The notes under the pieces: generated by a model
Seen by the model: only the letters and a program-made list of their open reading frames with translations
What the model was told of the DNA's origin: nothing
The model's database searches: none
Made by a program: the position numbers and the translations under genes
Source of the DNA: a phage
Sequence record: PZ386970.1
Length of the DNA: 64,000 bases
Direction: 5' to 3' (one strand)
Part shown: positions 39,112 to 39,892 of the stretch, piece by piece
Position numbering within the stretch: the first letter of the stretch is position 1
Layout of the letters: the number at the start of each line of letters is the position of its first letter

Positions 39112-39206
39112 TGTACGAAACGCCGGGATTTGAACCCGGTTATTAAGTAGTTGACGCTACTCAATATTTTTAAAAGGCCATATCTCGACCATATCCGAAC
39201 GTTCCG
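39112..39206 (-). ncRNA. tRNA-like RNA (unresolved; possible class II tRNA or small stable RNA)
   Basis: Canonical T-arm CCGGG-UUCAAAU-CCCGG on the minus strand and a possible 7-bp acceptor pairing about 92 nt apart; I could not fold a canonical D-arm or anticodon arm by eye. Confidence 0.3.
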
Positions 39207-39374
39207 TCAAAAACGCTACTCGGCTTACGGCAAAGATATTTCCTCGAATCGATAATTCTGTGCGCCGTTTCTGCTGTGATGTAAGGGGATATTAACAAAT
39301 CATAAAGATTTATTAAGACCAGTCCTTACTCAGGGAACATCAGTCCGACGACTTGCCGGTAGCGACCCGGCTTC

Positions 39375-39722
39375 TTATTTTGGCATATCATCAATTTGTT
39401 CTCGACGCCTACGCCATAGATTAATCGCTTCATTGACACATTCTGCGTTTGGTATATGACGGCAATAATATAATGATTCGCGTTTCTGGAACCGATGTTG
39501 CAACGGGATTTCGTTTAAAAGGTCTTTACGGTCAAAGTATTCAAAACTAGTTAACCCGGAACGGTTTTTAAGAAACTTCCAATGTCCGAATTCATTTTGA
39601 AAATAAACATAATCAGCATGCTGATACAGCGAATTAATTAACCTATCGGAAATAACTGTTTCACGTTCGTTAAAATAAAACGTTAAATCATGAACTACCA
39701 GATAAACATTGCCTTTCATATT
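39375..39722 (-). CDS. hypothetical protein within tRNA region
   Basis: Start moved to MKGNVYLVVHDL..., preceded by a GAGGA ribosome-binding site; the longer ORF-track start would overlap the tRNA-Arg gene. Confidence 0.4.
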   Translation of the reverse strand, partial: NMKGNVYLVVHDLTFYFNERETVISDRLINSLYQHADYVYFQNEFGHWKFLKNRSGLTSFEYFDRKDLLNEIPLQHRFQKRESLYYCRHIPNAECVNEAINLWRRRREQIDDMPK

Positions 39723-39737
39723 TTCCTCACTTGAAGT

Positions 39738-39814
39738 TGGTCGAGACAGAAGGATTCTAACCTTCAACCTACGGATTAGAAGTCCGTTGCTCTATACAAT
39801 TGAGCTATGCCTCG
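39738..39814 (-). tRNA. tRNA-Arg (anticodon UCU)
   Basis: Hand-folded cloverleaf on the minus strand: acceptor CGAGGCA/UGUCUCG, D-stem GCUC/GAGC, anticodon stem ACGGA/UCCGU with loop CUUCUAA, T-arm GAAGG-UUAGAAU-CCUUC, encoded CCA. Confidence 0.75.
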
Positions 39815-39817
39815 GAT

Positions 39818-39892
39818 TGGTGACCCTGGCTGGTTTCGATCCAGCTACCTATCAGTTATGAGCTGACAGCTCTCCCATTGAGCTACAGGGCC
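39818..39892 (-). tRNA. tRNA with CAU anticodon (Met or Ile2-type)
   Basis: Hand-folded cloverleaf on the minus strand: acceptor GGCCCUG/CAGGGUC, D-stem GCUC/GAGC, anticodon loop CUCAUAA, T-arm GCUGG-AUCGAAA-CCAGC, encoded CCA; 3 nt from the tRNA-Arg 5' end. Confidence 0.7.

Follow-up and report, generated by a model that had tools for sequence, protein, structure and literature searches.

The element downstream of the two tRNA genes in this phage DNA is, judged by its sequence, the ortholog of bacteriophage T4 rnaC, also called species 1 RNA. It covers 139 nt (39114..39252, minus strand) of the window, which is the whole 64-kb stretch analysed here, and corresponds to NC_000866 70908-71046. 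The two RNAs are identical at 137 of 139 positions from end to end (98.6%), whereas flanking genes are 70-78% identical. A covariance model that we built from 27 homologs gave the element a score of 151 bits, and this was the sole match in the window. Furthermore, the element is the 3'-most gene of the tRNA operon, between rnaD and the terminator. Covariation shows that this RNA folds as a cloverleaf-like four-way junction, and a paired change in two of its loops strongly suggests that two of the arms are locked together by a kissing interaction.

Species 1 RNA was first found in the 1970s, about 50 years ago. An earlier note on the present DNA offered three options for the element, namely a class II tRNA, a degenerate tRNA or a small stable RNA. 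Only the last of these stands. The span given at that time, 39112-39206, covers just the 3' two-thirds of the real RNA, 39252..39114. The perfect T-arm noticed there is indeed present (CCGGG-UUCAAAU-CCCGG, 39139..39123).

Fold of the species 1 RNA

For covariation, about 11 phage lineages were represented by 27-37 distinct homologs. The minimum free energy (MFE) of rnaC is -50.2 kcal/mol (z=-4.4), and the RNAalifold consensus holds 43 pairs, 25 of which have compensatory changes. When pairs were counted over the alignment, 96.9% of cells were paired, compared with 35-50% when the partner columns were slid, and none of 500 shuffles reached the observed value. The same junction was seen in three of four single-sequence MFE folds of diverged homologs.

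The terminal stem P1 is formed by the 5' strand CGAUUCG (39245..39251, minus strand) and the 3' strand CGUUUCG (39122..39116), and the T-arm runs straight into the latter (39116..39139 in all, minus strand). The T-arm is therefore contiguous with an acceptor-like stem, whose seven positions are five Watson-Crick pairs and two invariant tandem U.U mismatches. Pair 4:139 of P1 covaries (G-C, A-U), and so does pair 120:132 of the T-stem (U-A, G-C, A-U). Covariation thus shows P1 stacked on the T-arm as a tRNA-like minihelix of 12 layers. It also shows that an arm of about 60 nt, P2, replaces the D-arm and that a hairpin, P3, occupies the place of the anticodon or variable arm. P3 (39141..39166, minus strand) has a 10-bp stem, in which 8 of 10 pairs are compensatory, and a 6-nt loop, CGUCAA, at 39156..39151.

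This fold bears directly on the proposal of a class II or degenerate tRNA at 39112-39206, with an acceptor stem made of ACGGAACG and CGUUUCGU. The 8-bp pairing exists in the window sequence as the earlier note described it, ARAGORN calls a 95-nt "tRNA-Met(cat)" in the same register of one homolog (L024), and some GenBank records annotate rnaC with tRNA-Lys, tRNA-Phe or tRNA-Arg features. However, covariation contradicts this pairing. The corresponding helix (46-53/131-138) has 83% of cells paired and no compensatory pair; among the 27 homologs, pair 49:139 is broken in 18, 50:138 in 12 and 53:135 in 6. Column 139 shows perfect covariation with column 4 of the terminal stem rather than with nucleotide 49, and the sequence that would have to form D and anticodon arms makes up the 3' strand of P2, which covariation supports. 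The class II fold also gives no account of the first 45 nt of the mature T4 RNA. Finally, running ARAGORN and the Rfam models, as had been recommended, returned the two tRNAs and did not call the third element: ARAGORN made no call on rnaC, and RF00005 had no match to it at E<=10 over 38900-40000. We rejected the class II fold, and a tRNA identity of either kind is now highly improbable.

Within the four-way junction, the apex of P2 carries the hexamer UUGACG (39205..39210, minus strand), which is invariant in 30 of 37 distinct homologs and persists where the P2 arm is otherwise unalignable. The P2 apex and the P3 loop are complementary in 37 of 37 distinct homologs, with 100% of positions paired. 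The combination is UUGACG/CGUCAA in 30 homologs and UUGGCG/CGCCAA in the other 7, which are of the Marfavirus type; mixed combinations do not occur (0 of 37). The paired change of both hexamers points to a kissing loop, and we consider it strongly suggested that UUGACG and CGUCAA would form a 6-bp interaction locking the two arms. This co-change is one A-U to G-C double change in one lineage, that is, a single independent event (phylogenetically n=1). A hexamer-free pattern scan of IMG/VR, metagenomes and GTDB genomes returned the two known hexamer combinations, with no further independent event and no bacterial homolog of rnaC. One bacterial match (L052) was rejected as a chance match in a GC-rich coding region. 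T4 is annotated without a four-way-junction or kissing-loop model, and the model comes from the present analysis.

Invariant hexamers exposed in loops are also typical of sRNA seeds, and complementary loops would equally permit head-to-tail dimers. The hexamers might thus act between molecules, either in a base-pairing regulatory sRNA or in dimerisation through reciprocal P2 and P3 loops, and the literature loosely terms rnaC and rnaD "regulatory" (PMC9697503, PMC12685909). We regard this as unlikely. If each loop bound an external target of its own, nothing would explain why the two loops match one another and have changed jointly, and T4 has no functionally characterised trans-acting sRNA (PMC3014915). 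The kissing interaction within one molecule is the reading that we follow below.

Layout of the operon

The region 39,112-39,892 as a whole is very probably the operon for tRNAs and stable RNAs of a T-even phage that is RB69-like (Mosigvirus-type), and it is encoded on the minus strand. The best matches of the window are Mosigvirus-type phages, with 96-97% identity. From 5' to 3', the operon would consist of an Ile2-type tRNA(CAU), a 3-nt spacer, tRNA-Arg(UCU), an ORF of 114 aa, rnaD, rnaC, a trailer and an intrinsic terminator. In agreement with the first reading of the sequence, ARAGORN and Rfam detect two tRNAs and no more in the window; both are encoded on the minus strand. For RB69, Nolan et al. 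2006 (PMC1524935) list two tRNAs, one Arg UCU and one Ile CAU of the lysidine type, and the window has the identical two tRNAs in the identical arrangement, with no substantive difference. Both the set of two tRNAs in RB69-type phages and the tRNA-like species 1 RNA have been known in print for decades; therefore, neither is a discovery. Beyond the RB69 publication, we add the U19-A56 compensation in tRNA-Arg and the finding that the A54/A60 tRNA is common to Phapecoctavirus phages, both described below. The residual value of the region lies in rnaC and rnaD, which are functionally unassigned after about 50 years, since reviews from 2010 to 2025 give their function as unknown (PMC3014915, PMC9697503, PMC12685909).

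Comparison with T4 shows what has been kept and what has changed. At the corresponding site, the records of both T4 and RB7 carry rnaC and rnaD as annotated genes. T4 and the window share the order rnaD, rnaC, trailer and terminator, the strand of these elements relative to the tRNAs, and the terminator itself. In contrast, T4 has eight upstream tRNAs, a number given correctly in the earlier note (PMC1524935, Table 1), whereas two are present here, and segB is missing here. T4 rnaD starts 1 nt after tRNA-Arg, whereas here the 114-aa ORF lies between them. This ORF (39719..39375) and rnaD (39378..39259) are two features inside the interval that had been overlooked.

The 114-aa ORF (39375..39719, minus strand) is preceded by a GAGGA Shine-Dalgarno sequence 6 nt upstream. 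It matches phrog_3355, a family of unknown function (E=2e-50, profile positions 1-115 of 117), and this PHROG is the sole hit, as no match was obtained in Pfam, NCBIfam or PDB. The ORF was found in 426 records of T-even phages. T4 and RB7 have no such ORF at the same position, and rnaD directly follows tRNA-Arg there.

rnaD (39259..39378, minus strand) is the ortholog of T4 species 2 RNA (NC_000866 71053-71171), with which it aligns over 118 of 119 nt at about 88% match. It consists of a 5' hairpin, GCCGG-GUCGCUA-CCGGC (39371..39355), and then a long irregular hairpin, with an MFE of -39.3 kcal/mol (z=-3.9). RNAalifold of 12 homologs gave 33 pairs, 7 of them compensatory, including a G-C to A-U change in the pair closing the 5' hairpin. 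During adaptation of a T4-like phage to a semi-permissive host, every line acquired a convergent SNP in rnaD (PMC12685909), which is possibly a sign that the locus has a role in host interaction. Neither rnaC nor rnaD has an Rfam family. A scan of the region at E<=10 matched neither of them and returned the two tRNAs together with chance matches to plastid UTR models, YrlA, isrK and asX2. In many genomes, rnaC and rnaD are mis-annotated as hypothetical proteins or stray tRNAs.

By homology with T4, the operon would be transcribed as a single polycistronic RNA, from which host tRNA-processing enzymes would release the pair of tRNAs and the pair of stable RNAs, with RNase P acting at the 5' ends of the tRNAs and endo- and exonucleolytic trimming afterwards. 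The two tRNAs are separated by AUC (39815..39817, minus strand, from the ARAGORN coordinates), so that the 3-nt separation reported previously is exact, and this short spacer implies a dimeric tRNA precursor. T-even tRNAs are typically made as dimeric precursors, less than 5 nt apart, that are cut by RNase P (PMC11143913).

Downstream of rnaC there is a conserved 3' trailer (39063..39113, minus strand) with two small hairpins, 39109..39092 and 39077..39065, the latter with a GCAA loop. T4 and RB7 have a nearly identical trailer, and JS98, which has no rnaC, keeps it. It is followed by the intrinsic terminator of the operon (39035..39062, minus strand), GCCCCUUCCGAAAGGUUGGGGC and then six U, which was recognised by folding and is homologous to the T4 sequence 3' of rnaC. 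For T4, transcription is reported to stop downstream of the species I gene (PMC2330249). A simple terminator scan did not detect the operon terminator because of its internal U.U bulges. The sole call of that scan, on the plus strand, is the reverse complement of the 5' hairpin of rnaD, and we regard it as incidental.

The two tRNAs

Both called tRNAs are above the threshold of the RF00005 cloverleaf model and have a 7-nt anticodon loop, and both have unusual T-loops, as was noticed from the letters alone. tRNA-Arg(UCU) (39738..39814, minus strand) was called by ARAGORN and by RF00005 with 71.1 bits (gathering score 29), and its CCA is encoded. Its T-arm is GAAGG-UUAGAAU-CCUUC, in which the T-loop has A56, and its D-loop, AAUUGUAUA, lacks G19. 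Among 18 distinct phage tRNA-Arg(UCU) sequences, the D-loop AAUUGUAUA always occurs with UUAGAAU (5 sequences, with differing stems) and GG-containing D-loops always occur with UUCGA (13 sequences). There are no mixed cases, so that the tertiary pair 19-56 has switched from G-C to U-A. The association shows A56 paired with a co-varying U19, and the odd T-loops are those of functional variants. The A56 T-loop is no defect, because U19 in the D-loop compensates for it.

tRNA(CAU) (39818..39892, minus strand) was likewise called by ARAGORN and by RF00005, with 59.4 bits (gathering score 29), and it also encodes CCA. Its T-arm is GCUGG-AUCGAAA-CCAGC, with A54 and A60 in the loop. The sequence of this tRNA recurs with 100% identity in 60 phage records and with 96% identity in about 100 records of Phapecoctavirus, where the T-loop is unchanged and the anticodon stem has a compensatory change. 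Comparison of these sequences, as shown here, puts the A54/A60 tRNA under purifying selection in two unrelated phage groups. Because it is conserved in both, its T-loop is no defect either.

The acceptor stem given by ARAGORN is G1-C72, G2.U71, C3-G70, C4-G69, C5-G68, U6-A67 and G7-C66, the D-stem is GCUC/GAGC, and the anticodon stem is GUCAG/CUGAU. Two of these acceptor-stem pairs, C4:G69 and C5:G68, are the major identity elements for E. coli TilS (PMC11947777, PMC1635315). According to published discriminator rules (PMC1635315), the body of tRNA(CAU) is of the elongator type: 1:72 is paired (G1-C72), there is no A11:U24, and the anticodon stem has no run of three G-C pairs. T4 tRNA-Ile is a homolog of tRNA(CAU), and the acceptor stem and D-arm are common to both. 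Together with the RB69 listing (PMC1524935), these features make it most likely that tRNA(CAU) is a tRNA-Ile2 whose C34 would be converted to lysidine, which supports the AUA-reading tRNA-Ile suggested earlier. By homology with T4, the converting enzyme would be host TilS.

The two tRNAs would, again by homology with T4, supplement decoding of AUA and AGA, codons that the phage uses heavily. In the ORFs of the window, 12.7 of every 1000 codons are AUA and 7.5 are AGA; the usage in E. coli is about 4-5 and 2-3 per 1000. These values fit the earlier argument that the tRNAs serve rare host codons. The correlation with codon bias is weak in several T4-like phages (Nolan et al., PMC1524935), which would rather favour the idea that the tRNAs mainly replace host tRNAs depleted or cleaved during infection, for example by defence nucleases, with codon matching being secondary. 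Phage tRNAs can neutralise tRNA-cleaving defences; T6 gets past the Septu system, which cuts tRNA-Tyr, through amplification of the phage's own tRNA-Tyr (PMC13096335). The tandem of CAU and Arg(UCU) tRNAs is also present in the unrelated Phapecoctavirus phages, and the T-loop and D-loop variants could change recognition by nucleases. On the other hand, AUA and AGA are the classic rare codons of E. coli, and both are several-fold more common in the window. Replacement as the main reason is thus possible and worth keeping in mind, although we lean against it. Codon supplementation, the reading that we retain, is compatible with replacement.

Possible roles of rnaC and its relation to known RNAs

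In at least seven genera, rnaC lies between two neighbouring tRNA genes, either those for Trp and Gly or those for Phe and Trp. The location differs among phages, being the operon end in some and between various tRNA pairs in others, and the RNA itself is unchanged. From the placement between tRNA genes in other genera, we guess at a role as a tRNA mimic. rnaC may be a non-decoding, trans-acting RNA that shows its acceptor/T-arm face to a tRNA-binding factor of the host or the phage; this is a tentative reading that we would not yet call likely. Such an RNA might, with low confidence, serve as a decoy, competitor or scaffold and would be neither a decoder nor a mere relic. Candidate partners are a tRNA-directed defence nuclease and an enzyme of tRNA processing or modification. 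The T-loop is non-canonical in two lineages, Kanagawavirus and Winklervirus (UGCAUGC, UGCAUCC), which weakens strict mimicry of the tRNA elbow. If the mimic reading is true, it gives a role to the species 1 RNA of the 1970s. A little more doubtful still is the wider proposal that rnaC could be the founder of an uncatalogued class of trans-acting phage tRNA mimics with a kissing-locked four-way junction, spread over at least 11 Straboviridae-like lineages.

It could also be that rnaC and rnaD have no function in trans and are either decayed tRNA genes or cis structures for precursor processing or stability, being stable through structure alone. T4 deletions of the tRNA region that remove rnaC are viable on laboratory hosts. 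Covariance-model search did not find rnaC in JS98 or VR20, which shows that some relatives can dispense with the RNA. rnaC is always in or beside tRNA clusters, so that a cis role in folding or processing of the precursor is conceivable, and the 3' trailer is conserved, too. However, the near identity of rnaC with its T4 counterpart exceeds that of the neighbouring genes, and the RNA stays constant though its genomic position varies. Over about 11 lineages, the stems covary but the hexamers of the loops and the residues of the junction are invariant, and a relic would not keep complementary loops through a double substitution. In T4, moreover, rnaC is seen as a late RNA on a Northern blot and accumulates as a discrete stable species of about 140 nt (PMC9697503). 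A relic or a purely cis-acting structure is therefore improbable in our view, and the trans-acting mimic remains our working idea. The junction, the co-varying loops and the placement among tRNA genes are handles on the function of rnaC and would allow an RNA family to be built for annotation.

How, then, does rnaC compare with RNAs that are already known? It is like tRNA (RF00005) in its 5-bp T-stem, its mostly UUCRAAU T-loop, its 12 stacked layers, its four-way junction and its occurrence in tRNA arrays. It is unlike tRNA in having no D-arm with G18/G19 and no 7-nt anticodon loop. CCA is not encoded in most lineages, and the annotated mature 3' end of rnaC is ..GUA, without CCA. The two U.U mismatches, the arm of about 60 nt and the pairing between the P2 and P3 loops are further differences from tRNA, as are the junction linkers of 0, 8-10, 1 and 0 nt.

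tmRNA and the Y-RNA-like YrlA of bacteria and phages are stable RNAs that are matured by tRNA enzymes. In concept, rnaC resembles YrlA and the tRNA-like domain of tmRNA, and it may be viewed by analogy as an acceptor/T-arm module joined to non-tRNA domains. It appears to belong to neither, as ARAGORN found no tmRNA in the window, rnaC has no tag ORF, and cmscan gave no match of YrlA (RF02553) on rnaC. The chance match to YrlA in the region (16.6 bits; gathering score 69) was rejected, as it sits on the true tRNAs, not on rnaC. With respect to the loops, the closest comparison is with TAR-TAR*, ColE1 RNA I/II and HIV-1 DIS, which are loop-loop kissing complexes. Like these, rnaC has two hairpin loops with 6 fully complementary nucleotides. 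Unlike them, the kiss in rnaC would be intramolecular, joining two arms of one four-way junction.

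Content of the tRNA operon

ARAGORN found two tRNA genes in the whole 64-kb window, both on the minus strand: a tRNA(CAU) at 39892..39818 and a tRNA-Arg(UCU) at 39814..39738. Both also match the Rfam tRNA model, with 59.4 and 71.1 bits, respectively (gathering score, 29). The earlier note had read the same pair from the sequence and had placed them 3 nt apart, as the ARAGORN coordinates do. T-even tRNAs typically arise from dimeric precursors (PMC11143913), and this spacing fits such a precursor. The eight tRNAs that the note gives for T4 agree with the T4 annotation and with Nolan et al. 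2006 (PMC1524935, Tables 1 and 4), where RB69 is listed with two, Arg(UCU) and a putative lysidine-modified Ile(CAU). Thus, a reduced tRNA set is a published trait of the RB69 phage type. The surrounding 1.1 kb is 96-97% identical to Mosigvirus (RB69-like) coliphages, e.g., FP43, JS09 and HX01.

In the T4 annotation, the eight tRNAs are followed by two stable RNAs, rnaD (species 2) and rnaC (species 1), and the RB7 annotation likewise names both. Alignment with T4 places an rnaD ortholog at 39378..39259 (minus strand; 118 of the 119 nt of T4 rnaD, ~88% identity) and an rnaC ortholog at 39252..39114 (minus strand; 137 of 139 positions match). The tRNA-like element that the earlier note placed at 39112-39206 covers only the 3' two-thirds of rnaC. 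The note had considered a class II tRNA, a degenerate tRNA or a small stable RNA; the last holds, as the RNA is the ortholog of a T4 stable RNA, but the two tRNA options are rejected. ARAGORN and Rfam called the two tRNAs but not this element, even when Rfam was relaxed to E<=10 over 38900-40000. The observation was confirmed, and its interpretation was partly right.

Downstream of rnaC lie a conserved trailer with two small hairpins (39063-39113, minus strand) and the operon terminator (39062..39035, minus strand). The position of the terminator agrees with T4, in which transcription of the tRNA operon is reported to stop past the species I gene (PMC2330249). DNA identity to T4 is 70-78% in the flanking protein genes, 92% in the rnaD-rnaC-terminator block and 98.6% in rnaC alone, and rnaC is the most constrained sequence of the neighbourhood. 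The trailer, whose hairpins lie at 39109-39092 and 39077-39065 (GCAA tetraloop), is conserved in T4 and RB7 to a degree near that of rnaC; it may act as a signal for processing or belong to a longer stable RNA.

The fold of rnaD has an energy of -39.3 kcal/mol (z=-3.9). Its 5' hairpin, RCCGG-GUCGCUA-CCGGY, is closed by a covarying pair (G-C or A-U); the long hairpin 3' of it is invariant at its base and variable at its tip, where part of the pairs covary. In a simple terminator scan, the sole site returned was the complement of the 5' hairpin on the plus strand (39355-39371), together with a T-rich run. As the genes around it lie on the minus strand, this site is probably incidental. Between tRNA-Arg and rnaD sits, as a cassette, a 114-aa ORF (39719..39375, minus strand), the stop codon of which overlaps the first bases of rnaD. 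It belongs to phrog_3355 and occurs in 426 T-even records; its amino-acid identity is ~67% to the Tequatrovirus versions and 91-99% to those of Mosigvirus. Searches of Pfam, NCBIfam and PDB gave no relatives. T4 and RB7 do not have this ORF at this position, and VR20 has a different 79-aa ORF in its slot.

Upstream of the CAU tRNA (39904-39930, minus strand), GGTGCTCTAAAG, 12 nt and ATAATA resemble a T4 middle promoter (MotA box and -10 element), and the adjoining 48 nt (39944-39991) are 87.5% identical to the sequence upstream of the T4 tRNA cluster. Directly 3' of the terminator is TATAAATA (39026-39033, minus strand), the T4 late-promoter consensus, followed by an AAGGA ribosome-binding site and a 208-aa ORF (38990..38364, phrog_2280).

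Secondary structure of rnaC

As a single sequence, rnaC folds into a four-way junction (MFE -50.2 kcal/mol, z=-4.4). The terminal, acceptor-like stem P1 pairs 5'-CGAUUCG with CGUUUCG-3', with two U.U mismatches flanked by five Watson-Crick pairs. A short stem of 3 bp (AGG/CCU) leads into P2, an arm of ~60 nt, and an A-rich linker of 8-10 nt separates this arm from P3, a hairpin of 10 bp whose 6-nt loop is CGUCAA. A single A and the T-arm CCGGG-UUCAAAU-CCCGG follow, the latter continuous with the 3' strand of P1.

We collected 37 distinct homologs from GenBank phages, IMG/VR and metagenomes (Tequatrovirus, Mosigvirus, Kagamiyamavirus, Kanagawavirus, Winklervirus, Karamvirus, Moonvirus, Gelderlandvirus, Marfavirus, the Edwardsiella PEi20 group and Citrobacter phage Ursula). 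RNAalifold on 21 of them returned the same junction, with compensatory changes in 25 of 43 pairs. In a curated structure for 27 sequences, 96.9% of cells are paired, a share that falls to 35-50% once the 3' partners are shifted by 1-3 columns; double changes occur in 18 of 36 pairs, and the observed values were reached by none of 500 shuffles. Independent MFE folds gave this junction in three of four diverged homologs. Part of the structure may already have been drawn in the primary literature of the 1970s-1980s.

The earlier note had proposed an acceptor helix between ACGGAACG and CGUUUCGU. Both strands are present in the window, but the pairing fails covariation across homologs: there are zero compensatory changes in the 27 sequences, and the helix is disrupted at alignment columns 49:139 in 18, at 50:138 in 12 and at 53:135 in six of them. 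Its 3' column instead covaries perfectly with nucleotide 4 of P1 (A-U or G-C). Covariation thus rules out a class II or degenerate tRNA. In one homolog (L024, IMG/VR UViG_2700989062), ARAGORN calls rnaC a 95-nt tRNA-Met in the register of the rejected helix. Features deposited over rnaC include tRNA-Lys, tRNA-Phe, tRNA-Arg and "hypothetical protein" (MK327940, OK210076, NC_008515 and others), and few records only (T4, RB7 and RB68) use the names rnaC or rnaD; mis-annotation of rnaC is widespread.

The T-loop of rnaC is the canonical UUCRAAU in most lineages and UGCAUGC or UGCAUCC in Kanagawavirus and Winklervirus. Past P1, all lineages except the Marfavirus type have G-U-ACA-A. In Marfavirus-type Klebsiella phages (L012 322-470, L031-L033, L038, L040 and L050), the 3' end is G-U-CCA-A, which encodes CCA just where a 7-bp acceptor stem and a discriminator base would place it; this may bear on whether rnaC receives CCA.

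The hexamer at the P2 apex, UUGACG, is the exact complement of the P3 loop. Thirty distinct homologs have both hexamers unchanged, among them those in which P2 can no longer be aligned to its T4-type counterpart (fGh-Ecl04, Kosakonia 305, PEi20, Melville, Ursula and NM4.3), while the small stems presenting them covary freely. All seven Marfavirus-type sequences have UUGGCG at the apex and CGCCAA in the loop, a change from A-U to G-C at the exact pairing positions. No mixed combination was found among the 37 homologs, and pattern scans of IMG/VR and metagenomes with the hexamers left unspecified yielded no other combination. This co-change is one evolutionary event, so its statistical weight is modest. 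Taken with the complementarity of the two loops in every homolog, it favours an intramolecular loop-loop helix as the best reading, one that we consider fairly probable. The same hexamers could possibly mediate dimerisation, or each loop could pair with an external RNA.

The two tRNAs

The CAU tRNA has the acceptor stem and D-arm of T4 tRNA-Ile. It has G1-C72 and no initiator features (rules from PMC1635315), and it carries C4:G69 and C5:G68, which are major identity elements of E. coli TilS (PMC11947777; PMC1635315). On these three grounds it is best read as tRNA-Ile2, the AUA-reading tRNA-Ile anticipated in the earlier note; a lysidine-type Ile CAU has already been proposed for RB69 (PMC1524935). 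The unusual T-loops that the note pointed out are indeed present in both tRNAs. That of the CAU tRNA, AUCGAAA (A54, A60), is unique to it among the T-even loci compared. This tRNA is found at 100% identity in 60 phage records and at 96% in ~100 genomes of Phapecoctavirus, myoviruses unrelated to T-even phages (Stephanstirmvirinae). There the T-loop is retained and the anticodon-stem pair A30-U40 has become G30-C40, a compensatory change. These sequences point to a variant that is under selection and shared horizontally, and not to a gene in decay. A different tRNA-Arg(UCU) lies 2 nt 3' of it in Phapecoctavirus (L053 301-452), and the sharing suggests either horizontal tRNA transfer or convergent assembly of an AUA/AGA decoder pair. 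The 90 window ORFs use AUA at 12.7 and AGA at 7.5 per 1000 codons, roughly three-fold above E. coli.

The T-loop of tRNA-Arg(UCU), UUAGAAU, has A56 and comes with the D-loop AAUUGUAUA, in which U occupies the usual G19 site. Among 18 distinct phage tRNA-Arg(UCU) sequences, AAUUGUAUA always accompanies UUAGAAU (five sequences with differing stems, VR20 included), GG-containing D-loops always accompany UUCGA (13 sequences), and mixed combinations number zero. By this comparison, the tertiary pair G19-C56 has been replaced by U19-A56. Two metagenomic or IMG/VR sequences, L051 and L026, carry the window's exact tRNA-Arg, and L051 also its rnaD, with a T4-type tRNA-Ile (T-loop UUCGAAU) and not the A54 variant. 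This mixture indicates that the tRNA region is mosaic at single-gene scale.

Distribution and possible role of rnaC

A covariance model made from the rnaC alignment finds a single copy in the window (151 bits). Pattern searches across 185,579 genomes of bacteria and archaea gave a chance match only. In EcS1 and LC53, rnaC occupies the gap between tRNA-Phe and tRNA-Trp. It lies directly 3' of tRNA-Trp, with tRNA-Gly as the next tRNA, in fGh-Ecl04, VIPECLOM01, CW742, Virsaitis27, Melville, Proteus ABTNLPp2 and Ursula (the last with an ORF before tRNA-Gly), and 3' of a tRNA(CAU) in IME523. Thus, rnaC is a regular member of tRNA arrays; it is presumably matured by the tRNA machinery and plausibly descends from a tRNA gene. 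Dhakavirus JS98 (L006 1501-1740) and Gaprivervirus VR20 (L008 1500-2210) keep rnaD, and the covariance model found no rnaC in either at E<=1. The trailer and terminator are retained in JS98 as well, and VR20 has an ORF in place of rnaC. These natural rnaC-minus relatives are useful for comparative phenotyping.

The roles of rnaC and rnaD are given as unknown in PMC3014915, PMC9697503 and PMC12685909. Both are late RNAs by Northern blot (2022 study, PMC9697503), and during adaptation of a T4-like phage to a semi-permissive host, a convergent rnaD SNP appeared in all lines (2025, PMC12685909), which hints at a host-interaction role of the locus. Our best mechanistic guess, a tentative one, makes rnaC a tRNA mimic that does not decode: it would engage a tRNA-binding factor through its acceptor/T-arm face, and its remaining two arms would be held by the kissing loop. 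Alternatively, and less probably, this RNA, sited among tRNA genes ahead of a conserved trailer, could act in cis in processing or stability, or be a relic; it could also act as a base-pairing sRNA or a dimer. What may be worth keeping is the covariation-supported structure and candidate kissing loop of an RNA without an Rfam family, its distribution in the tRNA arrays of many genera, and the U19-A56 compensation in tRNA-Arg. Each feature of the interval is the ortholog of one already known from T-even phages.
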